Shown: in pieces, positions 5,980 through 53,355 of the stretch
Layout: each line of letters begins with the position of its first letter
Numbering within the stretch: the first letter of the stretch is position 1
Origin: Candidatus Saccharimonadia bacterium
GTDB lineage: Bacteria > Patescibacteriota > Saccharimonadia > UBA4664 > SCTI01
DNA length: 64,000 nt
Assembly: GCA_046597065.1 (NCBI GenBank)
Contig: JBKJLI010000003.1
Coordinates: 290,841 to 354,840, forward strand
Reading direction: 5' to 3'
Notes under the pieces: generated by a model
What the model saw: only the letters and a program-made list of their open reading frames with translations
What the model was told of the DNA's origin: nothing
Databases searched by the model: none
Made by a program: the position numbers and the translations under genes

Positions 5980-7275
5980 GTGGCCAAACGGTTTCAGCAT
6001 GTTCGGGGAATGCCCGATATACTACCAGCAGAGGAACAGGGTTATAGATACGCAATAGATAGCTTTTCATCGCTAGCCGATGCGGCTGGCTATGAGCGCT
6101 TACAGATTCCCGTACTAGAAGATAAGGGTGTGTTCGAACGCGGAGTTGGTGACGATACCGATGTGGTGTCTAAAGAGATGTACGTATTAACCGACCGATC
6201 GGGAAATGAGTTGGCTCTACGCCCTGAGCCCACTGCCGGTATTGTGCGGGCTTATTTAGAGCATGGTATGTCTAGTTTGCCTCAGCCGGTGCGTGTGCAG
6301 GTGGCCGGTGCCATGTTTCGCTATGATCGCCCGCAGGCCGGACGCCAGCGTCAGTTTACGCAGGTCGGCGTAGAGGTTATTGGTGAGGGTGCCTCGAGCG
6401 TTGATGCTCAGTTGGTTACCTTGGCCCTACGTTACTATCGTATGCTGGGTTTGCGTAATATTACTCTCCAAATCAACAGCCTTGGTGATACAGCCGATCG
6501 CGCTGCTTACCTTAAGGCCTTGGTGGCATATCTTAAAGAGCACAAATCTAAGTTAGCCGATGTTGATCAGAAGCGGCTTTCTGGTAATCCGTTGAGAGTG
6601 CTTGATTCCAAAGAAAAAGCTAGTCAAAAGATTATTCAAGGGGCACCTCAGATTCTTAATTATCTTTCAGAAACCAGTAAGGCCCACTTTACCGGTGTGT
6701 TGGAATATCTAGACGCTCTGGGAATCGCCTACGAATTGAATCCTCAGCTAGTGCGAGGCTTAGATTATTACACCCACACCGTATTCGAGTTTTATGGCGG
6801 CCGCGATGGCTCACAAAGCAGTCTTGGTGGTGGCGGTCGCTATAATCATCTGGTAGAGCAGCTAGGTGGCCAGCCAACTCCGGCTGCCGGTTTTGGCATT
6901 GGTATAGAGCGTGTACTACTGGAAATGCGCGAAGAGGGTATCGACATTCCGCACTCTAAACCGGTCAGCGTTTACGTTGCCAGTTTGGGTGAGCCAGCTC
7001 GCGTTAGCGCCTTTGCTTTGATCGAAAAGCTGCTGGATGCCGGAGTTGGAACAGTTGGTGCTGTCGACAAAGATGGGATTGGTCCACAACTTGAACGTGC
7101 CAACAAGCTGGGAATGCCATTTGCGGTTATCATCGGCCAAAAAGAGGTACAAGAAGAGACGGTTATTTTGCGCGATATGAAATCGGGTGCTCAGGAGATG
7201 ATGCCGCTTGCCACCATTGTTAAGGAACTGCAGACACGATTTAAACCGGTCAAGCCAGTTAAAGTGGCTAAGTAA
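5980..7275 (+). CDS. hisS: Histidyl-tRNA synthetase
   Basis: 431 aa class II aaRS with HisRS motifs (RYDRPQAGRQRQF, GGGRY). GTG start with the SD sequence agaggaag. Confidence 0.9.
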   Translation: MAKRFQHVRGMPDILPAEEQGYRYAIDSFSSLADAAGYERLQIPVLEDKGVFERGVGDDTDVVSKEMYVLTDRSGNELALRPEPTAGIVRAYLEHGMSSLPQPVRVQVAGAMFRYDRPQAGRQRQFTQVGVEVIGEGASSVDAQLVTLALRYYRMLGLRNITLQINSLGDTADRAAYLKALVAYLKEHKSKLADVDQKRLSGNPLRVLDSKEKASQKIIQGAPQILNYLSETSKAHFTGVLEYLDALGIAYELNPQLVRGLDYYTHTVFEFYGGRDGSQSSLGGGGRYNHLVEQLGGQPTPAAGFGIGIERVLLEMREEGIDIPHSKPVSVYVASLGEPARVSAFALIEKLLDAGVGTVGAVDKDGIGPQLERANKLGMPFAVIIGQKEVQEETVILRDMKSGAQEMMPLATIVKELQTRFKPVKPVKVAK

Positions 7276-7542
7276 GTGAACGCTTACGACTTTCTGGTCA
7301 ACACTTATAACAGTTTCCTGGCAATATTCCCTCCGTCAACCCAGTGGCTGGTAACTTTGTTTGTACTGCTGGGCGTGATTGGCGCGGCCGTTAGTATGGT
7401 GCGCAGCAACTGGCTGGCGCTGATCGTTATCGTGCTTTTACTGCCATTTTTGTTGCCCGTACTGCAGCATTTTATAAGTGATATCTTGCACTTCTTTAGT
7501 TATCTACTGCAAGCTTTGCGGTTACAGGCCCCGCCAAATTAA
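7276..7542 (+). CDS. Small two-TM membrane protein, hypothetical
   Basis: 88 aa hydrophobic ORF that abuts the hisS stop. GTG start. Confidence 0.35.
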   Translation: MNAYDFLVNTYNSFLAIFPPSTQWLVTLFVLLGVIGAAVSMVRSNWLALIVIVLLLPFLLPVLQHFISDILHFFSYLLQALRLQAPPN

Positions 7543-7609: not shown

Positions 7610-8149
7610 TTAGCTGCCAGAGATCATACGACCACAGGCAGGCCATGGCGACCAGCCGCGAACGGCAAAGTCGGCCTGAGCCTTAGCATCCTGAACCTCG
7701 GCCGGAGCCTGGTCGGGACGGGCAAAACCACCATAGCCATTCCAAGTACCCAATGAGTACTGGTAGGCGCCGTAGTAGCCGTTACCACTGTTGCGAGTGT
7801 AGGTGTTACCCGACTCACATAGACGTAAGCGGTACCAGGTATCGGCGGTGGCTGGAGCGTTGGCAACGGTTACAATCCGGACTCGCGCCTTAGCAGCCTT
7901 TTGGGCAGCCTTAGCGGCTTGAGCCTGACGCAATGGAGTCAAAACATCGGTATCGAAGTTGGGCTCCGTTGGTTTAGTCACCGCCAGTGCGGTAGCCGAG
8001 CTAGTATCTAGAGTTAGCTTGTAAGGTACGGTTTGGGCTACAGCTGCATGAGCTGTATTAGCCTGAAGCATGATCGGCAGAGCCGTCACAATTTGGGCTG
8101 GACTGGCCAACAGTAACAGTAAAGTGGCCAGAGTGTGTAAGCGGTACAT
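7610..8149 (-). CDS. Secreted Rpf-like transglycosylase-domain protein
   Basis: Carries a signal peptide. The C-terminal sequence WYRLRLCESGNTYTRNSGNGYYGAYQYSLGTWNGYGG matches the resuscitation-promoting-factor transglycosylase-like domain. Confidence 0.75.
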   Translation of the reverse strand: MYRLHTLATLLLLLASPAQIVTALPIMLQANTAHAAVAQTVPYKLTLDTSSATALAVTKPTEPNFDTDVLTPLRQAQAAKAAQKAAKARVRIVTVANAPATADTWYRLRLCESGNTYTRNSGNGYYGAYQYSLGTWNGYGGFARPDQAPAEVQDAKAQADFAVRGWSPWPACGRMISGS

Positions 8150-8413
8150 GGGGGATTAGAGGACTCCTTTCTCCCGTGCGAGGCGCTTGCAGCCTCAGAG
8201 CATCATCTCTATCTGTGAAATTCCTCACACAAACGTTTAAAAGGTGCTCTGATAACTAAAAAAGCCTGTCGCAACTGGACAGACTTTCGAGTCATCGGGA
8301 AGTACTATACCAACATAAGCGGTATTTGTCAAGTAGTTTAATGTCTGGTATGATCAAAAATAGCTAAATTAACCCATCTGTACAACAGATGTGAGCAAAA
8401 ACTGCTAAAAAAG

Positions 8414-8448
8414 GTTGACGTTATTAACAATAAGCGGTAAAAATAGGG
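8414..8448 (+). promoter_or_regulatory. Sigma70-like promoter: TTGACG, 17 nt spacer, TAAAAT
   Basis: Near-consensus -35 and -10 elements with a 17 nt spacer. The spacer contains the recurring taagcggta motif. Confidence 0.5.
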
Positions 8449-8528
8449 GGTCTTGAGTCGATATGTGATTCGAGTTTTTTTGAAAGTAGCACCTTTTTAG
8501 ACCCCCAGCACGAGGAGCGTGTTCGAGT

Positions 8529-8780
8529 ATGTGCAGCATCGCCATCCAGAGCATGATCGATGAATTCATCGCCAAGCATGAGCTCAAGTACCAAAAGATC
8601 GTCGGCAGTAAGGGGGGTTTCGATCATGCCATGTCGTTGCTCGCTCGATCGGGCATCAGCGGCACAGATCGGCGTCTGATGAAGAAGGAGCTGCACCAGG
8701 TGCTCGTGTCGAATCTCGAGAGCCAGGCCCGCAAGCGTCGTAGGGATGCAAGCCAACCCTCCGTTGCCGTACCGGCCTGA
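8529..8780 (+). CDS. Hypothetical small protein (83 aa) with high G+C and strong GC3 bias
   Basis: Promoter upstream and an AGGAG SD. Third codon positions are strongly G/C, unlike flanking genes. Confidence 0.4.
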   Translation: MCSIAIQSMIDEFIAKHELKYQKIVGSKGGFDHAMSLLARSGISGTDRRLMKKELHQVLVSNLESQARKRRRDASQPSVAVPA

Positions 8781-9158
8781 GCGGCCAGATGGCTCGCCCT
8801 AAGAGATTAACTACTGGCGCGAAGGGGCAACAAGGTTCTGTGAAACAGATGCCCCGGCCGTCGCCGGTCTGGCCTCCACCTGTTAGGACCGATAGTCGAC
8901 AGCGCTACCTGAATGGACGCCCCGGCCGTCGTCGTCCTCGTGCCCGGACCTGAAGTCCGGATAGCACTTGCCAAACTACGGTACCGGTTTGGCACCCCGA
9001 CCCCCGAGCCACGAATGGCATAGGGGTCGGGTCTTCCGCACTACTTTGTTCAAAATTCTAAATCAGATCTTGCAATACGCTTATGCTTATGATAGGTTAA
9101 AAGCATAAGCCCAGATACGATTCATCCAAGGAGGATGATTCACATGCCGGGAAGCACC

Positions 9159-9473
9159 TCAAATGGACTGCTCGTCTGCGAAGACAGAGCCTTGGATCAT
9201 GTCGGGAAGGCTCTCCCCAAGAGGATGGCTGCGGATACGCACCGCGACCGCCTCATCCCGCACCCGCTGCACCCTCGCGAGCGCGTTCGGGTGAGCGTTG
9301 CCTGCCTCGACCTCGTCACGTGCCTCCATGAGAGGAACATTCGTCATCGACGCGGTCAGGCTCCTCGCTGTGAGGTTGATGCTCTGATCGCCATCGGAGC
9401 AGATCGCCTTCTCATCGAGGCGGTTCTCGAAGTCGCGGCCTAGCACCATCTTCGCGTTTAACGCGGAAACCAC
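9159..9473 (-). CDS. Hypothetical protein (104 aa) in the high-G+C island. It overlaps completely a plus-strand ORF (9135..9443).
   Basis: GTG start preceded by gaggaggaggaa. Its amino-acid composition is protein-like, whereas the opposite-strand ORF is Arg/His-rich. Confidence 0.3.
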   Translation of the reverse strand: MVSALNAKMVLGRDFENRLDEKAICSDGDQSINLTARSLTASMTNVPLMEARDEVEAGNAHPNALARVQRVRDEAVAVRIRSHPLGESLPDMIQGSVFADEQSI

Positions 9474-9529
9474 ACGAGTATTCCTCCTCCTCGTGGCGTC
9501 GGAACCTGACGGGGGCGTCAGGCGGTAAA

Positions 9530-9570
9530 CGGGCCCGGTCCTTCATTGGACCGGGCCCGGAAGTATTTTT
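9530..9570 (+). terminator. Intrinsic terminator: 12 bp stem cgggcccggtcc / ggaccgggcccg followed by tattttt
   Basis: Perfect 12 bp inverted repeat with a 6 nt loop and a T-tract. Confidence 0.6.
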
Positions 9571-9592
9571 AGGCACTTATATCTGCTACATT

Positions 9593-9904
9593 ATGGACAT
9601 GAAGCCAAATTGTTTGTTTTGCAAAATTATCGCCGACAACAGCTCATTGGTTTGGCAAAACGAGGAGTTTGCAGCCTTTAAGGACATCCACCCGAAGGCT
9701 AACCTTCATCTGTTAATAGTGCCCAAACTGCATATAGATAGTCTTGATCATCTGCCACCGGCTGAGTCACCCGGATTAATCGCTGCCATTCACCAAGTGG
9801 CTGAATCGCAGGGGGTTAAGGGAGCTTATTGGGTTCAGGTCAACGTTGGTAGAGCCGGAGGCCAAGAAATCGATCATTTGCACGTCCATTTGCTAGCTAG
9901 TTGA
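9593..9904 (+). CDS. HIT-family (histidine triad) hydrolase
   Basis: 103 aa. The C-terminal sequence EIDHLHVHLL is the histidine triad. Confidence 0.85.
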   Translation: MDMKPNCLFCKIIADNSSLVWQNEEFAAFKDIHPKANLHLLIVPKLHIDSLDHLPPAESPGLIAAIHQVAESQGVKGAYWVQVNVGRAGGQEIDHLHVHLLAS

Positions 9905-12007: not shown

Positions 12008-12749
12008 CCAGATTAAAACAGCCGGCGAAATCGCCACAATGCGGCGTGGCGGTAGGATGCTGGCGCAAGTGCTAGAGGTTGTTGGAATGGCGGCCAAACC
12101 TGGCATAACGCCGGCCGAGCTAAGCGCCTTGGCCGGTCGCGAGGTACAGCGACTTGGAGGTGAACCGGCCTTTTTAGGCCATCAGGGCTTTTCGGCACCC
12201 ATCTGCATATCGGTCAACGATGCGGTGGTACATGGTATACCGGGCAAAATCCCACTGCGCGATGGTGATATCGTTGGGCTAGATTTTGGCGTGCGGCTAA
12301 ATGGTATGCTAACCGATGGCGCGGTTACAGTTGCTGTCGGATCAATCGATTCTGAAGCCCAGCGGTTACTAGATGTAACTAAAGCGGCGCTTGCGGCTGG
12401 CATTAAGGCGTCTCGCGGTGGCAATCGGGTGGGCGATATATCGGCGGCCGTCGAGCGGGTGCTAAGGGCCGGCGGCCTCGGTGTGATTGAGGATTTGGTT
12501 GGTCATGGCGTTGGCCACAGCCTGTGGGAGGAGCCTCAGGTTCCCAACTACGGCCCGGCCGGCAAGGGCCCCAAGCTGGTTCCGGGTATGACCATTGCGA
12601 TTGAGCCGATGGCGACCCTGGGCAGCCACCAAATCAAGACCGACAGCGACCACTGGACCATCCGCACTATCGATGGCAGCCTGGCCGCCCAGTTCGAACA
12701 CACAATTGCCATTACCCCCGGTGCTCCCCAAATTCTGACCGCCCTTTAG
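11994..12749 (+). CDS. map: Methionine aminopeptidase type I
   Basis: N-terminal IKTAGEIATMRRGGRML plus metal-binding D, D, H, E, E residues. A GTG start at 11994 is chosen instead of the ORF-track ATG at 11835. Confidence 0.8.
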   Translation: MVSSSQIKTAGEIATMRRGGRMLAQVLEVVGMAAKPGITPAELSALAGREVQRLGGEPAFLGHQGFSAPICISVNDAVVHGIPGKIPLRDGDIVGLDFGVRLNGMLTDGAVTVAVGSIDSEAQRLLDVTKAALAAGIKASRGGNRVGDISAAVERVLRAGGLGVIEDLVGHGVGHSLWEEPQVPNYGPAGKGPKLVPGMTIAIEPMATLGSHQIKTDSDHWTIRTIDGSLAAQFEHTIAITPGAPQILTAL

Positions 12750-12770
12750 ATTGCATCAGCTTGCCTTCGG

Positions 12771-14066
12771 GTGAGCGTAACCACTATAATGGGGGTTAGC
12801 GATAAGGAGCGGACACAGCAAGTGGCAGCCCGCGGGCAAGAAGAAATTTTCATCGGTTTAGATATTGGCAGCACCAAAGTGTGCTGTATTGTTGGTCTGC
12901 ACGAAGAAACCGCCGCCCAGCCTAGTATTATTGGAGTTGGTGTCGCGCCGGTTTCGGGACTACGCAAAGGCGAGGTCATAGATATTGAAGAGACGGTTTC
13001 ATCAATCACCGCGGCGGTTGATGAGGCTGAACGAATTTCTGGCGTCCCGATTGACCGAGCCACTATCAACCTAGACGGTGCTCACGTAGAGAGCCTAAAC
13101 TCTAGCGGCGTGATCGCAGTGGGTCGCGCTGATCAAGAGATCTCTGTAGAGGATGTTCGCCGCGCTGAGGAAGCCGCCGCCGCCGTCCAGCTACCGCCAA
13201 ACCGCGAGATCATCCAAATGTTCCCGCGCTCGTTTAGCGTTGATGGTCAGCATAATATTAAAGACCCAGTAGGAATGAACGGTGTGCGGCTAGAGGTCCA
13301 GACCCATGTTGTCACTGGCTCTATCCCTGTAATAAAGAACTTACATCGCAGCATTTATCAGGCTGGTATTGATATTGAAGGTCAGGTACTGGTACCCTTG
13401 GCCGCCGCCCGTGCGGTTTTAACCAAAAAGCAGATGGAGCTAGGTGTAGCGGTTGTTGATATAGGTGGAGGCACTACCGGCGTTGCGATTTATGAGGAAG
13501 GGGAGATTCTTTATTCAAGCGTGTTGCCCGTTGGGGCTACCCACATTACAAACGATATTGCGATTGGGCTACGTACAGATGTAGAAGTGGCTGAAAAAAT
13601 TAAGCTTGAACATGTCAAAGCTTACGTTGGCCGGCCAATTGCCGCCAGCGAAAAAGTAAGGATAGATGAGTTGGGGAGTGAAGCCGGGCTAGTATCAAAG
13701 CGGGATCTATTTGGGATCGCCGAAGCTCGCTTAGAAGAGATTTTTGGTATGGTACACGATGAGTTCAAAAAGGTGCATAAGGCTGGGATGTTACCCGGCG
13801 GGGTTGTACTAACCGGCGGAGGTGCCAAAATGCCAGGTATTGAACAGCTTGCAAAGCAGTTATTAAAGCTACCGGTAGTGATTGGTAAGCCCGAGGGTTT
13901 AAGCGGTTTAAGTGATAAAGTTAATGATCCGGCCTTTGCAGTACCGGTAGGTCTGATGCTAGAGAATATGAACTACGCCGGTGGCAGCGGCAGTGGTCGA
14001 ACAAGCGATAGATTAGGCGATACCGTAGATAGGATTCGCAAAACACTTCGTAATTTACTGCCTTAA
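12771..14066 (+). CDS. ftsA: Cell division protein FtsA
   Basis: FIGLDIGSTKV actin-fold N-terminus. Start is uncertain within 12771-12822. Confidence 0.85.
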   Translation: MSVTTIMGVSDKERTQQVAARGQEEIFIGLDIGSTKVCCIVGLHEETAAQPSIIGVGVAPVSGLRKGEVIDIEETVSSITAAVDEAERISGVPIDRATINLDGAHVESLNSSGVIAVGRADQEISVEDVRRAEEAAAAVQLPPNREIIQMFPRSFSVDGQHNIKDPVGMNGVRLEVQTHVVTGSIPVIKNLHRSIYQAGIDIEGQVLVPLAAARAVLTKKQMELGVAVVDIGGGTTGVAIYEEGEILYSSVLPVGATHITNDIAIGLRTDVEVAEKIKLEHVKAYVGRPIAASEKVRIDELGSEAGLVSKRDLFGIAEARLEEIFGMVHDEFKKVHKAGMLPGGVVLTGGGAKMPGIEQLAKQLLKLPVVIGKPEGLSGLSDKVNDPAFAVPVGLMLENMNYAGGSGSGRTSDRLGDTVDRIRKTLRNLLP

Positions 14067-16754: not shown

Positions 16755-19673
16755 ATGACCGACACTCTGGCTGCCGCATCTGTGGCAGCAACACCTGAAC
16801 CCAAGGGCATGACAGTGAAGCGTCGCTTCACCACGCCTGGGGTGCACCCGTTCGACACCGTCGAGTGGGAGTTGCGTGACGCTCGCATTGGACACGGCGA
16901 CAAGGTCGCGTTCGAGCAGAAGGGCGTCGAGTTCCCGACTACCTGGAGCCAGAACTCAACCAACATCGTGGCCCAGAAGTACTTCCGCGGTCAACTGGAC
17001 TCGCCAGCGCGAGAGCGTTCGGTGAAGCAGATGATCTCGCGAGTGGCCAACACCATTACCGAATGGGGCCATGAGCACGGATACTTCGCCACTCAGGAAG
17101 ACGGCGATGCGTTCCAGGACGAGCTGACCTACTTCCTGTTGCACCAGATGGCGGCCTTTAACAGCCCGGTCTGGTTCAATGTCGGGTTTGAAGATCAGCC
17201 GCAGTGCAGCGCCTGCTTCATCCTCAGCGTCGACGACACCCTGGATTCGATTCTGGACTGGAACACCAAGGAAGGTAAGATCTTCCGTGGTGGCTCTGGA
17301 TCGGGCATCAACCTGTCGAACATCCGCGGCTCGGTAGAGCCGTTGAGCAAGGGCGGCACGGCCTCTGGGCCGGTGTCGTTCATGCGCGGGACCGATTCTT
17401 GGGCTGGCACCATCAAGTCCGGCGGCAAGACGCGTCGGGCGGCTAAGATGGTCATCCTCGACATCGATCACCCGGATGTGGGTGAGTTCATCTGGTGCAA
17501 GGCCAAGGAAGAGGACAAGGCCGAGGCCTTGCGCGACGCCGGCTTCGACATGTCGATTGACGGCGAAGGGTTCAAGAGCATCCAGTATCAGAACGCCAAC
17601 AACTCGGTGCGTGTGAGCGATGAGTTCATGCGTGCCGTTGAGGCAGATGAGACATGGGTGCTGAAGGCGCGGGCCGATGGTTTGCCGGTAGGCGAGCCGA
17701 TTCCGGCTCGTGAGCTGATGCGTGACATCGCCAAAGCCGCCTGGCGCTGCGCTGATCCTGGTGTACAGTATGACACCGTGATCAACCAGTGGCACACCTG
17801 CCCGAAGTCTGGGCGCATCAACGCCTCGAACCCCTGCAGCGAGTACATGCATGTCGATAACTCGGCCTGCAACCTCGCCAGCCTCAACCTGATGAAGTTC
17901 CGTCAGCCGGACGGCACGCTGGACGTGGCAGCTTACGAGCATGCCATCGACATCGTGTTCATGGCTCAGGAAATTCTGGTGGGACCGTCGAGCTACCCGA
18001 CCGATGAGATCGGGATCAATGCTCGGGCGTTTCGTCAGCTTGGTATGGGGTACACCAACCTCGGCGCCTACCTGATGGCAGACGGCACTCCGTACGACTC
18101 GGATGCCGCTCGTGGAACGGCAGCGGCCCTTGCGGCGCTGATGACCGGTCGGGCCTATCGCCAGTCAGCCATGATGGCTGATGCAGTCGGCCCGTACGAG
18201 CGCTACCAGCTCAACCACGAGGGTCACATGGGTGTGATGCAGATGCATCGTGATGCGGCCCACGAGCTGCCGGATTCAGGGGTTGCGGATACGGCGTTGC
18301 ATATGGCCGCCCGTAATGCGTGGGACGATGTGGTCGAACTTGGCAACGAGTACGGCTTCCGTAACGCCCAGGCCACGGTGCTCGCGCCGACGGGGACGAT
18401 TTCGTTCCTGATGGACTGCGACACCACAGGTGTTGAGCCGGACTTCTCCTTGGTGAAGTTCAAGGAGCTGGTGGGCGGCGGTCAGATGACCATCGTTAAC
18501 CAGACGATCCCAAGTGCCCTTGCCAATCTTGGGTACACGCCCGAGCAGGTAGAGGCAATCAAGGACTACATCGAGGAGCCGATTCCGGTTGGCGAACCCG
18601 TAGATGGGGTGCAGCTGATGCAGGCTCGTGGCACCATCGTTGGTGCCCCGGGGATCAGCAAAGAGGATCTGCCGGTGTTCGATGTGGCGGTGGGTGAGCG
18701 GGCGATCGCTCCGATGGGTCACATCAAGATGATGGGCGCTGTTCAGCCCTTCATCAGTGGTGCGATCTCGAAGACGGTCAACATGCCGGCTAGCTCGACG
18801 GTCGAAGACATCTACGATGCCTACATGGATTCGTGGAAGCTCGGCGTGAAGGCACTGGCCATCTACCGCGATGGGTCTAAGACGGCCCAGGCGCTGCGCA
18901 CCGATGCGCAGTTGGGCCAGGATGGTGCGGCAGATGAGCCGTTGTTCACACAGGCTCAGGTGGATGAGTTGATCACCAAGGCCAATGGCTCAATCGGCCC
19001 GTTGCGTCGCAAGATGCCTCGGGAGCGACAGTCATTGACCCACAAGTTCACGATCGGTGGACACGAGGGTTACATCACTGCCGGCAAGTACGAGGACGGC
19101 ACGCTGGGTGAGATCTTCCTGACCGACATCGGGAAGGAAGGTTCAACCATGCGAGGGATGATGAACTCCTTCGCCACGATGGTTTCGATCGCGCTCCAGT
19201 ACGGTGTGCCGCTCGAGACTCTGGCAAGGAAGTTCAGCTACGTTCGCTTTGAGCCGGAGGGGATCACACAGAACATCGAGATCCCGTTCGCAAAGAGCAT
19301 GCCCGACTACATCATGCGTTGGTTGGCTTCGCGCTTCCTCGATCCTAGCATTCAGCTGGAATTGGGGATCAGAACGCCGGCCGCCGAAGCATTGAAGGCG
19401 GATCAAGAGGCTGCCACCAGTGTGCTGGAAACAGCTGCACCGGTGGTGAAAACTCCTGCAAAGCCGCCTGGTGCAGAGCTGGGTCCTCAGGGTTCCATTA
19501 CCCACACCGCCGCAGCTGAGGGCAATGGCAACGGAGTTCATCAGCCGGTCATGACACAACACAACGTGCAGTTGGACGCTGGCCCTCCATGCAAAATCTG
19601 TGGAGGCATGACACAGCGTTCGGGAGTCTGCTACGTTTGCTCCCAGTGCGGTGCAACAACCGGTTGCAGTTGA
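16755..19673 (+). CDS. nrdJ: Adenosylcobalamin-dependent (class II) ribonucleoside-diphosphate reductase NrdJ, with C-terminal zinc ribbon
   Basis: 972 aa with class II RNR motifs and a CxxC...CxxC C-terminus. G+C is markedly higher than in flanking genes. SD sequence aggag lies 4 nt upstream. Confidence 0.9.
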   Translation: MTDTLAAASVAATPEPKGMTVKRRFTTPGVHPFDTVEWELRDARIGHGDKVAFEQKGVEFPTTWSQNSTNIVAQKYFRGQLDSPARERSVKQMISRVANTITEWGHEHGYFATQEDGDAFQDELTYFLLHQMAAFNSPVWFNVGFEDQPQCSACFILSVDDTLDSILDWNTKEGKIFRGGSGSGINLSNIRGSVEPLSKGGTASGPVSFMRGTDSWAGTIKSGGKTRRAAKMVILDIDHPDVGEFIWCKAKEEDKAEALRDAGFDMSIDGEGFKSIQYQNANNSVRVSDEFMRAVEADETWVLKARADGLPVGEPIPARELMRDIAKAAWRCADPGVQYDTVINQWHTCPKSGRINASNPCSEYMHVDNSACNLASLNLMKFRQPDGTLDVAAYEHAIDIVFMAQEILVGPSSYPTDEIGINARAFRQLGMGYTNLGAYLMADGTPYDSDAARGTAAALAALMTGRAYRQSAMMADAVGPYERYQLNHEGHMGVMQMHRDAAHELPDSGVADTALHMAARNAWDDVVELGNEYGFRNAQATVLAPTGTISFLMDCDTTGVEPDFSLVKFKELVGGGQMTIVNQTIPSALANLGYTPEQVEAIKDYIEEPIPVGEPVDGVQLMQARGTIVGAPGISKEDLPVFDVAVGERAIAPMGHIKMMGAVQPFISGAISKTVNMPASSTVEDIYDAYMDSWKLGVKALAIYRDGSKTAQALRTDAQLGQDGAADEPLFTQAQVDELITKANGSIGPLRRKMPRERQSLTHKFTIGGHEGYITAGKYEDGTLGEIFLTDIGKEGSTMRGMMNSFATMVSIALQYGVPLETLARKFSYVRFEPEGITQNIEIPFAKSMPDYIMRWLASRFLDPSIQLELGIRTPAAEALKADQEAATSVLETAAPVVKTPAKPPGAELGPQGSITHTAAAEGNGNGVHQPVMTQHNVQLDAGPPCKICGGMTQRSGVCYVCSQCGATTGCS

Positions 19674-51990: not shown

Positions 51991-52125
51991 AAGCGTTGAA
52001 ACACAAAGGCCACGTGCTTTCAACTTAACCCCGTTCATCCAGAAAGGATGATGCCTCGTGGCAACTGACAGCAGGATGGTCGGGGGAAACTTCCTGGCCA
52101 CAACGACCACCAAGGAGAAGTGACG

Positions 52126-53355
52126 ATGCGCTCCATGCTCATCAAGCTGTTCCTGGTCGCGCTCGTCGCGGCCATCTTCACCATCCCGGCAGTGGCCTCG
52201 GCCGCTTCCACGGCACCGGTCGCTCACGCGGCTTCGTCGTACTGCGGCCCCCCGGCCATGAACAAGACCCAGTGGGTTTCGTTCTGGAGAGACCATCCGA
52301 ACTCGTCGCTCACCAAGAGCTTCGAACGGCTGGTCCGAGCGGACGCCAAGCACACCCACATCAAGAAGGATCAGACCTTCTTGTCGTGGGCTCAGTCCCC
52401 GAACATCAAGATCGTCAGGACACCGCCTGGCTACAGGCTGGATTCCAACACCTATTGCCCTGGTGGGCAGTACCAGCCGTATCCAGATCTCCTGGGCTAC
52501 GGCAACCAACTCACGCCTTCATGGTGTGAGGGTGGCGCGAAGCCGTCCACGACGGTGACGAAGGTGCAAAAGCGTGGCAAGTGGTACTACAAGTACACCA
52601 CCACTGTCACTGAGTCCTGCGCGCCTCTCGCCAAGGGATACTGCCGCAACCGGGCGACTGGGAAGTCGTTCAAGGTCGTCAAGCGCAAGGTGACGTATAA
52701 GCGCATCAAGCACAAGACGCCCAAGTGCGGCTGCAAGCCCAAGCCCAAGCCGCCGCCTGCACAGGTCAACTACTGCCCCAACGGTTCGCCGGTGGTCAGC
52801 GGTGTTGCCTGTGTCAATCAGTCTCAAGCCCAGGAGGTCAAGCAGGACTGCAAGGGTCCGAACGTTGACAGCACTCAGTGCATCAGCATTCAGATCCAGC
52901 AGCAGATCGTGTGCGGCAACGGCACGATCATCATCGGGAGCAGTACCACGACGTCGACCACTGGTGACCAGTGCAACACGGTCATCGTGGTGCCACCCCC
53001 GCCGCCGCCGGTCTGCATCCCGCCGACCACCGGTACGTACCCGAACTGTCAGGTTCCCACCTGTCCGGCGGGCACAACCGGTACCTACCCGGTCTGCAAT
53101 GCTCCGGCGGTTTGCCCCGCTGGTGACCTGCAGGCAACCGACACCACCTTGAGTGGCTTCGGTTACCGTACTGGTGACTTTCTCGGCATTGCCGGGGGGT
53201 ATTTCCAGTACTACGTTCGGGCTGATGGTTCGGGCAAGCTGTTCTTTGCGAAGGATTACACCTCGGTGCAGTCCAGTTACACGAACGGCAGCCCGATCTG
53301 TGGCAAGGCCAACCCGGCCGGCCCCGGAGGCACACCGCCTCCGCCGTCGCCGTAG
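52126..53355 (+). CDS. Secreted Cys-rich, Pro-rich protein encoded in a high-G+C island
   Basis: SD sequence aaggag lies 8 nt before the ATG. It has a signal peptide, many Cys residues, a PPPPPPP linker and strong GC3 bias. Antisense ORFs here are artefacts of the G+C content. Confidence 0.55.
   Translation: MRSMLIKLFLVALVAAIFTIPAVASAASTAPVAHAASSYCGPPAMNKTQWVSFWRDHPNSSLTKSFERLVRADAKHTHIKKDQTFLSWAQSPNIKIVRTPPGYRLDSNTYCPGGQYQPYPDLLGYGNQLTPSWCEGGAKPSTTVTKVQKRGKWYYKYTTTVTESCAPLAKGYCRNRATGKSFKVVKRKVTYKRIKHKTPKCGCKPKPKPPPAQVNYCPNGSPVVSGVACVNQSQAQEVKQDCKGPNVDSTQCISIQIQQQIVCGNGTIIIGSSTTTSTTGDQCNTVIVVPPPPPPVCIPPTTGTYPNCQVPTCPAGTTGTYPVCNAPAVCPAGDLQATDTTLSGFGYRTGDFLGIAGGYFQYYVRADGSGKLFFAKDYTSVQSSYTNGSPICGKANPAGPGGTPPPPSP

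Follow-up and report, generated by a model that had tools for sequence, protein, structure and literature searches.

We analyzed a 1.2-kb G+C-rich (guanine- and cytosine-rich) island that would span about positions 8396-9592 of a stretch of 64,000 nucleotides (nt), the window, from a Candidatus Saccharimonadia bacterium (GenBank assembly GCA_046597065.1, contig JBKJLI010000003.1, positions 290,841 to 354,840). The island is probably a lineage-restricted accessory cassette with two small protein genes on the plus strand, open reading frame (ORF) A and gene 2, each transcribed on its own, and with the ORFs antisense to them as by-products; we hold this reading with moderate confidence. In a clade of soil Saccharimonadales, the cassette would sit in a variable slot directly in front of the HIT gene. 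Its first unit would lead from a promoter (P1) through a 5' stem-loop and ORF A, encoding a helical protein with a basic tail, into a hairpin-rich 3' region that ends with a terminator-like hairpin. The second unit would start at a promoter (P2) within a 10-bp inverted repeat and continue through a strong Shine-Dalgarno (SD) sequence, gene 2 and 3' hairpins to a strong terminator at 9530-9570, which would insulate HIT from it. Both units would be monocistronic and driven by host promoters, and the fully overlapping antisense ORFs would follow mechanically from the codon usage of the plus-strand genes. The argument starts from direct observations of composition, anatomy, synteny, presence and absence, conservation on the plus strand, and lack of homologues. 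The transcription units, the translation and the function of both genes are what we infer. The composition, repeats, hairpins, palindrome, overlapping ORFs and terminator that a first-pass annotation had listed for this locus are all present, and the observation itself is confirmed as real.

The G+C content had been claimed to rise sharply near position 8500, and a windowed plot bore this out. In 200-nt windows, the G+C fraction rose from 0.34-0.43 at 8300-8599 to 0.56-0.65 over 8500-9499, with a dip to 0.475 at 9000-9199, and lay at 0.46-0.50 beyond 9600, such that the island is not uniform with its surroundings. Overall, 58.7% of the nucleotides at 8500-9575 are G or C, compared with 50.2% in the whole window. 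Only 4.1% of the windows of the same length were as G+C-rich, and these were confined to the island, the nrdJ gene (16.6-19.7 kb) and the gene of a cysteine- and proline-rich, apparently secreted protein (51.9-53.6 kb). Codon usage deviates as well, as is typical of genomic islands: the G+C fraction at third codon positions (GC3) is 0.68-0.74 for the island ORFs, whereas the mean of 70 ORFs of the window is 0.52 (standard deviation 0.07). The strong third-position bias that had been ascribed to ORF A was thus seen in its GC3 of 0.74 (GC1/2/3 = 0.57/0.42/0.74). In sliding 150-nt folds, z ranged from about -0.8 to +1.5 for ORF A and from -0.8 to -2.4 for gene 2, and strong excess folding (z -2 to -5) was found only at 8925-9224, where the P2 palindrome and the final hairpins of the spacer lie, and at 9450-9674, which contains the 3' hairpins and the terminator. 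The high G+C content is mainly due to the G- and C-ending codons of coding sequence, not to RNA structure of the ORF bodies.

The island occupies a slot between the following neighbours.

7610-8149, minus strand: rpf-like transglycosylase gene (PF06737), left neighbour of the island in the same slot
Start at 9593: HIT gene, right neighbour of the island

HisS and the products of nearby genes assign the window to the Saccharimonadales (Saccharibacteria, candidate phyla radiation). The locus was compared with those of relatives, including a soil metagenome-assembled genome (L002), which was the best genome match (HisS 73% identical), two metagenome contigs with HisS sequences 71-72% identical to that of the window (L090 and L091), and a 2.1-kb contig that carries P0005, a relative of the gene 2 protein (L082). 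Two additional assemblies of the L002 organism (L163 and L164) were 99.97-100% identical to L002, and a Logan assembly (L001) was identical to the window across the whole region. The gene order recJ-hisS-tm88-slot-HIT-rpsU-yqeY-ybeY-dgk-adk is kept in L002, L003, L006, L090 and L091, and it is inverted in L005. A rough neighbour-joining tree of RecJ, HisS and YqeY placed L090/L091 as the sister group of the window. Both have the same order of tm88, rpf on the minus strand, and HIT, with only about 260 nt from the rpf start codon to the HIT ATG and no island. Alignment with these two contigs breaks at about 8395 on the left and immediately before the HIT start on the right. The slot thus shows the presence and absence between conserved flanks that is expected of a genomic island, as the island is missing from L090/L091 and present in L082 and L002. 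An assembly chimera was considered and ruled out, because the architecture recurs in independent samples (L082, L002, L163 and L164).

Two of the relatives show how the cassette is built. The L082 contig follows the order of the window, with a minus-strand rpf whose leader and promoter are nearly identical, P1, the 5' hairpin and a 79-amino-acid ORF, and then a G+C-rich spacer, the P2 block, an SD sequence and an ATG followed by MPGSTS. At the DNA level, only two blocks could be aligned between the window and L082, namely 8403-8465 (81% identity) and 9004-9194 (73%), the latter comprising the terminator hairpin, P2, the SD sequence and the first approximately 17 codons of gene 2. The rpf leaders are 90-94% identical, compared with 36-46% for the ORF bodies. 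Two alignable blocks with diverged bodies indicate that the cassette is a mosaic, in which conserved regulatory blocks surround hyper-divergent or replaced coding bodies. L002 has the layout of the window plus one ORF, that is, ORF A (78 amino acids), ORF B (117 amino acids), a canonical terminator, P2 and an 82-amino-acid gene starting with MSGSTN. The G+C content of the slot was also high in L002 (63-66% at 12450-13550, compared with 53% for the locus), in L003 (55-61% versus 46%) and in L005 (65-67% versus 52%). The slot ORFs of these three relatives have GC3 values of 0.63-0.84 throughout with GC2 lowest, the pattern of genuine G+C-rich coding sequence. In L005, the slot beside HIT (6230-7336, minus strand, 65-67% G+C) holds four small ORFs of 94, 98, 87 and 106 amino acids, three with 4-nt start/stop overlaps and the last with an overlap of about 50 nt. 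These ORFs match no Pfam family and show no similarity to those of the window, such that the G+C-rich orphan cassettes in the slot differ from lineage to lineage. G+C-rich orphan ORFs were also seen upstream of HIT in L086 and L093.

The first-pass annotation had likened the island to foreign DNA from a high-G+C donor. A recent import from such a donor, an actinobacterial host or its mobilome, that has not yet been ameliorated would account for the 58.7% G+C and a GC3 of 0.68-0.74 against about 0.51 in the host, and for the missing island in the sister lineage L090/L091. Next to the island, rpf encodes a Transglycosylase-like domain (PF06737), which is typical of actinobacterial Rpf proteins, and Saccharibacteria are episymbionts of Actinobacteria. 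Judged by composition, nrdJ and the gene at 52120-53355 show that the genome does hold foreign-looking genes. However, no homologue was found outside three Saccharimonadales loci in the protein, phage, plasmid and viral collections searched, and L002 has gene 2, P2 and the terminator architecture in this slot as well, although the recJ, hisS and yqeY products of L002 and the window are together only 65% identical. Furthermore, every slot occupant seen in relatives is GC3-rich, the P2 spacer motif is the same as in the host rpf and ftsZ-upstream promoters, and integrase, tRNA and flanking direct repeat are all missing. We therefore regard a recent import as unlikely. Of the claimed foreignness, the outlying composition, the indel relative to L090/L091 and the orphan ORFs stand, whereas a donor was not found and a homologous gene 2 lies in the L002 slot. 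That last result also realizes in part an outcome named beforehand as speaking against foreign DNA, namely conservation and synteny in low-G+C relatives, since gene 2 and P2 lie in the same slot of L002. The island is accessory DNA that is possibly horizontally derived.

The mobility and the donor expected of a genomic island were not found. No integrase or transposase was seen, flanking repeats did not exceed chance 8-10-mers, no tRNA is present in the 64 kb, and no recombinase ORF lies in or beside the island. Matches were limited to the proteins themselves and Saccharimonadales in collections of 5.8 and 1.8 billion proteins, and phage, plasmid and viral collections yielded none. Compared with genomic islets, which are small accessory regions that were acquired horizontally or are hypervariable and that lie between conserved core genes, the locus has the deviant composition, the presence or absence in close lineages, the orphan content and a fixed site, here between tm88/rpf and HIT. 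It differs in lacking an integrase, a transposase, a tRNA, flanking repeats and an identifiable donor, in having gene 2 and its promoter in common between lineages that are 65% identical in the recJ, hisS and yqeY products, and in its high GC3 in all slot occupants seen, not in one import.

The second unit is the part of the cassette that could be traced best, and its features are as follows.

9070-9110, plus strand: candidate promoter P2 (TTGCAA, 17 nt, TAGGTT), read from the sequence (7/12, under the scan threshold)
9144-9443, plus strand: gene 2, 99 amino acids, with an SD-like sequence (AAGGAGGA) at 9128-9135
9159-9473, minus strand: antisense ORF of gene 2, 104 amino acids, GTG start, with an SD-like sequence (GAGGAGGAGGAA) complementary to 9480-9491
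9451-9467, 9473-9495 and 9505-9522, plus strand: hairpins in the 3' untranslated region of gene 2, from folding
9530-9570, plus strand: predicted intrinsic terminator with a 12-bp stem (11 G-C) at 9530-9559, a 6-nt loop and a T-run

An exhaustive phmmer search of 1.8 billion proteins yielded P0005 of L082 as a relative of gene 2 (96 amino acids, 33% identity over the full length, E = 6e-4). Two further phmmer matches of the plus-strand ORF turned out to be repeat-protein artefacts. A word-indexed search with a profile of the three gene 2 proteins recovered only those of the window, L082 and L002, the three known members of this small family. P2, the SD sequence, the ATG and the N-terminal M(P/S)GST are conserved in all three genomes. 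An ATG at 9135 overlaps the SD sequence, and the conserved start is the ATG at 9144, which sits 8 nt past it; gene 2 most likely starts at this second ATG. The AlphaFold model of the protein is an alpha/beta model of low confidence, with a predicted local distance difference test (pLDDT) score of 63.

Complete overlap of two ORFs on opposite strands had been noted here, at 9135-9443 on the plus strand and at 9159-9473 on the minus strand, each behind an SD-like sequence, and both were recovered. The two ORFs share codon boundaries exactly, such that every codon on the minus strand is a plus-strand codon in reverse complement. Minus-strand stops can arise only from TTA, CTA and TCA codons on the plus strand, and the complete overlap is thereby explained without biology. 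The plus ORF contains one TCA, the last serine codon of MPGSTS, which is the minus stop, no TTA or CTA, and none of the three after codon 9. As these codons make up 4.6% of the host codons, 4.7 would be expected in 103 codons, compared with one observed. Because this argument from codon avoidance is symmetric, the strand has to be settled by conservation.

Conservation favoured the plus strand. Smith-Waterman comparison of the window with L082 gave a score of 120 for the plus frame and 74 for the antisense frame. Protein-guided codon alignments showed the order pos2 > pos1 > pos3 of nucleotide identity in the plus frame for 3/3 pairs (0.57/0.49/0.42, 0.53/0.51/0.39 and 0.56/0.48/0.39). On the codons common to both ORFs, the BLOSUM62 sums were 101, 55 and 81 for the plus translation and 48, 21 and 22 for the minus translation, and even on columns optimised for the minus strand the plus translation was equal or better in 2/3 pairs. 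The minus ORF includes none of the conserved promoter, SD sequence, ATG and M(P/S)GST codons, and the terminators have their T-runs on the plus strand. The L082 counterpart of the window's minus start, a GGAGGA-GTG, is out of frame and meets a stop after 14 codons, and the first in-frame start of the long antisense frame gives 77 amino acids only. In L002, the antisense frame continues through HIT. Gene 2 is thus most likely the ORF at 9144-9443 on the plus strand; the signal is consistent but modest and comes from three sequences.

That the minus ORF is the real gene, or that both strands are translated, we regard as very unlikely. It has a strong SD sequence (GAGGAGGAGGAA) and a GTG start, it is called in the NCBI annotation, its GC3 is 0.76 with GC3 > GC1 > GC2, and its amino-acid composition is ordinary. 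However, its translation is less conserved than that of the plus strand on identical codon columns, the conserved MPGSTS codons lie outside it, and no minus-strand promoter is evident. Moreover, its start is out of frame in L082, and the L002 antisense frame runs through HIT, as a shadow would. An antiparallel gene pair would require that both frames are conserved independently, and the minus start is conserved in neither L082 nor L002. The minus product found only itself among 5.8 billion proteins in the word-indexed search. The ORF at 9159-9473, although annotated in the NCBI record, is probably an antisense shadow and not a gene. Its product had been described as the more protein-like one; this did not hold, as the plus translation is better conserved and the minus ORF is an exact antisense frame that is open through missing codons. 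With gene 2 on the plus strand, the genes of the island are in tandem, and the earlier description of convergent small genes has to be given up, given the better conserved plus frame and the plus-strand T-runs.

Gene calls conflict at this position: the NCBI record contains the 104-amino-acid minus ORF (P0002), and Logan/Prodigal contains the 99-amino-acid plus ORF (P0003). The L002 homologue has been annotated by NCBI on the plus strand (P0007). The situation resembles the shadow ORFs of G+C-rich coding sequence, in that the minus ORF runs antisense, codon for codon, to a gene that is rich in GC3 and avoids TTA, CTA and TCA and in that annotation pipelines disagree on the strand at 9135-9473. 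It differs in that the host genome has only about 50% G+C, such that the island stands out locally, and in that the minus ORF happens to have a good SD sequence and a GTG.

The candidate promoter of gene 2 is unusual in its surroundings. A 10-bp inverted repeat (GCTTATGCTT/AAGCATAAGC at 9079-9088/9101-9110) flanks the -10 element of P2. This is the palindrome that the first-pass annotation had reported; it is real, whereas its placement at 9071-9101 was wrong. The repeat looks like an operator. The position and architecture of P2 and an 11-mer are kept in L082 and L002, and the spacer motif ACGCTTATGCT is conserved and also found in the P2 of L002. We considered CGCTTATG, the left arm of the repeat, as an island-specific operator and rejected it, as it also occurs in host promoters, including that of L090, which has no island. 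In both the rpf promoter and the ftsA-ftsZ spacer it comes after the -35 element, and it is therefore probably a feature of host promoters. CGCTTAT(G) was seen right after -35-like hexamers at 8315, 9078, 14268, 14488 and 60242 of the window and inverted at 8430; these sites include the rpf promoter (also in L090), the island P2 and the ftsA-ftsZ spacer, where it forms the palindrome ATAAGCGCTTAT. With 15 copies compared with 10.1 expected, the motif is not enriched, and it is associated with promoters by position alone. It could represent a promoter element specific to the clade or a site bound by a regulator.

Downstream of gene 2, the 3' untranslated region contains four hairpins (fold z = -3.7 for 9441-9575). 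The one at 9473-9495 has a CU-rich loop, UCCUCC, that is complementary to the gene's own SD sequence (9129-9138 with 9482-9491). A hairpin with a CCUCCU loop and a different stem lies equally far past the stop in L082, and a regulatory role of the hairpin is speculative. A strong plus-strand terminator had been predicted at 9530-9570, and the G+C-rich stem-loop (9530-9559; 11/12 G-C pairs) and U-run on the transcribed strand that define an intrinsic terminator were indeed present. The T-run reads GAAGTATTTTT, the local fold z is -4.3 to -5.3, and the element ends 23 nt before the HIT start. Equivalent terminators lie just upstream of HIT in L002 and L003.

The first unit comprises the following features.

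8415-8444, plus strand: promoter-like P1 (TTGACG, 18 nt, AAAAAT; 9/12 in a pattern scan), candidate sigma-70-type
8452-8481, plus strand: 5' stem-loop of 9 pairs, a terminator-like scan match at the predicted 5' end of the transcript
8529-8780, plus strand: ORF A, 83 amino acids, SD sequence GAGGAG at 8512-8517, an orphan singleton
8424-8756, minus strand: antisense ORF of ORF A, 110 amino acids, GC3 only 0.50, overlooked in the first-pass annotation
8781-9031, plus strand: non-coding G+C-rich spacer, the hairpin-rich 3' region of unit 1, about 250 nt
8939-8966, 8968-8994 and 8996-9031, plus strand: spacer hairpins, the last one terminator-like

The P1 block (8403-8465) is 81% identical in L082, although the downstream ORF cannot be aligned, and the L082 promoter reads TTGAC-N-TTAACAATAAGCGGTAAAAATA, as in the window. 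The 5' stem-loop is kept in L082 with two compensatory pairs, and it is followed by T7 in the window only; it may act as a stabiliser or attenuator. ORF A was called by the gene callers of both NCBI and Logan. Its single-sequence AlphaFold model (pLDDT 74) has four helices (4-17, 21-26, 30-40 and 45-74) and an arginine-rich C-terminal tail. The model is compatible with a small nucleic-acid-binding protein, without being diagnostic, and the protein possibly binds nucleic acid. No similar protein other than itself was found among the 5.8 billion (word-indexed search). The ORFs that L082, L002 and L003 have in its place show no detectable similarity to it, and among these the L082 and L002 ORFs are mutually related (pairwise E = 3e-6). 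The minus frame at 8424-8756 is open because ORF A lacks TTA, CTA and TCA codons.

The spacer between the units is rich in repeats and hairpins, as had been noted. The duplicated sequence placed at about 8852 and 8919 is the 13-mer GCCCCGGCCGTCG, which has exactly two copies in the window (8851-8863 and 8919-8931) and extends to a 19-mer with 17/19 matches. The G+C-rich hairpins are likewise present, for example CCGGACctgaaGTCCGG at 8944-8960. L082 retains the hairpin at 8996-9031 with alterations in its outer stem, and a canonical terminator lies at the same place in L002; this hairpin most likely ends unit 1. No reading frame of the spacer is conserved with L082, where the best scores were tied at 39. 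A small ORF, ORF54 (8789-8953), was rejected, as no frame stands out against L082 and GC3 is the lowest of its codon positions. The hairpins were also tested as dispersed repeats, that is, repetitive extragenic palindromes (REP) or miniature inverted-repeat transposable elements (MITE), and this was rejected, because no further copies were found in the window or in the loci of the relatives.

Because G+C-rich intergenic islands are a classic signature of structured RNA, the island might be mainly a structured non-coding RNA locus with incidental ORFs. The 354-nt spacer 8781-9134 folds better than 100/100 shuffles (z = -4.1 on the plus strand and -3.4 on the minus strand), 9441-9575 also exceeds its shuffles (z -3.7), and some hairpins are kept with changed stems in L082. 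Against this, the ORF bodies have fold z values near 0, the ORFs show coding-type GC1/2/3 periodicity, gene 2 has homology at the protein level, and the spacer is nearly unalignable with the closest relative. Rfam 15 gave 0 matches at the gathering score over the window (the best permissive match had 18 bits, compared with a gathering score of 181), and the island has no Rfam match even at E <= 10. We consider an RNA locus highly improbable.

Two small genes in a variable slot that evolve much faster than their flanks, an ORF A product predicted to be helical with a basic tail, and an operator-like inverted repeat around the P2 -10 element would all be consistent with a toxin-antitoxin or defence module, in which ORF A would be the DNA-binding antitoxin or regulator and gene 2 the effector. 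However, a 363-nt gap with a terminator-like hairpin and a second promoter separates the two genes, such that they do not form the one operon of type II toxin-antitoxin and similar small defence modules, and the L002 units are separated by a canonical terminator and an additional ORF. The left arm of the palindrome is also a host-promoter motif. Pfam, PHROGs, PADLOC and NCBIfam yielded nothing for the island ORFs of the window or the relatives, and thus no toxin or antitoxin family or fold. ORF A is not conserved together with gene 2, and neither presence nor sequence co-varies between the two. As the transcription units would be separate and ORF A is not conserved, a toxin-antitoxin operon is unlikely, and we assign such a module a clearly low probability.

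Further searches were equally negative. Neither the phage and plasmid BLAST searches nor the scan of viral contigs matched the island, and a scan of metagenomes with the conserved DNA pattern from P2 to the start codon gave 0 matches. A sequence profile search of the PDB gave only a weak match to eS25 (E = 0.044). That the genes evolve fast and lie in a variable slot suggests an accessory role in conflict or one that is dispensable for other reasons, and the products would be fast-evolving cytoplasmic accessory proteins of a conflict or regulatory type.

Several points weigh against the reading as an accessory cassette of two genes. All searches for families, folds and defence systems were negative, and the proposed function is a guess. 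ORF A has no homologue at all, such that the case for coding consists of its SD sequence, its codon periodicity and a moderately confident model, and chance alone produces ORFs of 80-100 codons not infrequently in DNA of about 60% G+C (own estimate, 4-7% per frame start). The codon-position signal of gene 2 is modest (about 0.49 versus 0.40 identity), and the three pairs are not independent. The left edge of the island is unsure by a few tens of bases, because another alignment register makes P1 the former HIT promoter rather than an island-borne element. Lastly, the persistence of high GC3 over such divergent lineages is not explained by simple vertical descent.

This last point bears on the history of the slot. 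The favoured accessory cassette would be old or repeatedly exchanged in the slot: gene 2 and its regulatory block are common to L082 and L002, ORF A would have been replaced or have diverged past recognition, and the entire cassette is absent in the sister lineage L090/L091. A simple ancient acquisition should have been ameliorated by now, which would point to repeated exchange from a G+C-rich pool or to local GC-biased gene conversion at a recombination hot spot. In its strongest form, the slot would be a hot spot at which small, GC3-rich, fast-evolving cassettes from a G+C-rich mobile pool, perhaps linked to actinobacterial hosts or phages, are swapped between conserved blocks and act in symbiont-host or phage conflict. 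The conserved blocks would be P1 with the 5' hairpin, and the terminator, P2 and the N-terminus of gene 2, and high GC3 would mark membership of the pool or GC-biased gene conversion at the hot spot. We consider this form unlikely.

Other observations were made at the locus and elsewhere in the window. The leader of rpf (8150-8305, minus strand; gene 7610-8149) is 90-94% identical to that of L082, compared with 60-80% for the rpf coding sequence. An RNAalifold consensus for the window, L082, L090 and L091 contains 40 pairs, 7 of them with compensatory changes, and comprises two notable hairpins, a 5' one that is terminator-like and has a U-run, and a 3' one in which the SD sequence (GGGAGAAAGGAG) is sequestered. 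The leader has no Rfam match and is a candidate for a new cis-regulatory leader or riboswitch. In Actinobacteria, rpf genes lie behind the ydaO c-di-AMP riboswitch. L082 contains about 150 extra nt between the rpf promoter and P1 (590-700) that are absent in the window, with a near-perfect 17-bp inverted repeat (TTCTCGAAATTGAGAAA ... TTTCTCAATTTCGAGAA); this stretch could be a miniature inverted-repeat element or an operator. A second indel lies nearby: an SPFH/Band-7 (stomatin-like) gene is found between hisS and the gene for the 88-amino-acid membrane protein in L002 (11319-12089), L003 (11275-12036), L005 and L095, and it is missing from the window (7275-7276), L090 and L091, where tm88 directly follows hisS. 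The only two other strong GC3 outliers in the window are a class II ribonucleotide reductase-like gene (nrdJ) at 16755-19673 (972 amino acids, GC3 0.74) and a gene at 52120-53355 for a cysteine- and proline-rich protein of 411 amino acids with an apparent N-terminal signal peptide (GC3 0.80). Long antisense shadow ORFs are found in both, and both may be further compositionally foreign genes.

Together, these results describe one more orphan islet in a variable slot, new in itself but of an ordinary kind, and no long-standing question is opened by it. It serves as a worked example that a G+C island in a mid-G+C genome of the candidate phyla radiation is GC3-rich orphan coding sequence, which creates full-length antisense ORFs. 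Host attachment and conflict biology of Saccharibacteria are largely carried by unannotated small genes. If the slot is indeed a hot spot of cassette exchange, the locus would give access to fast-evolving small proteins of Saccharibacteria.

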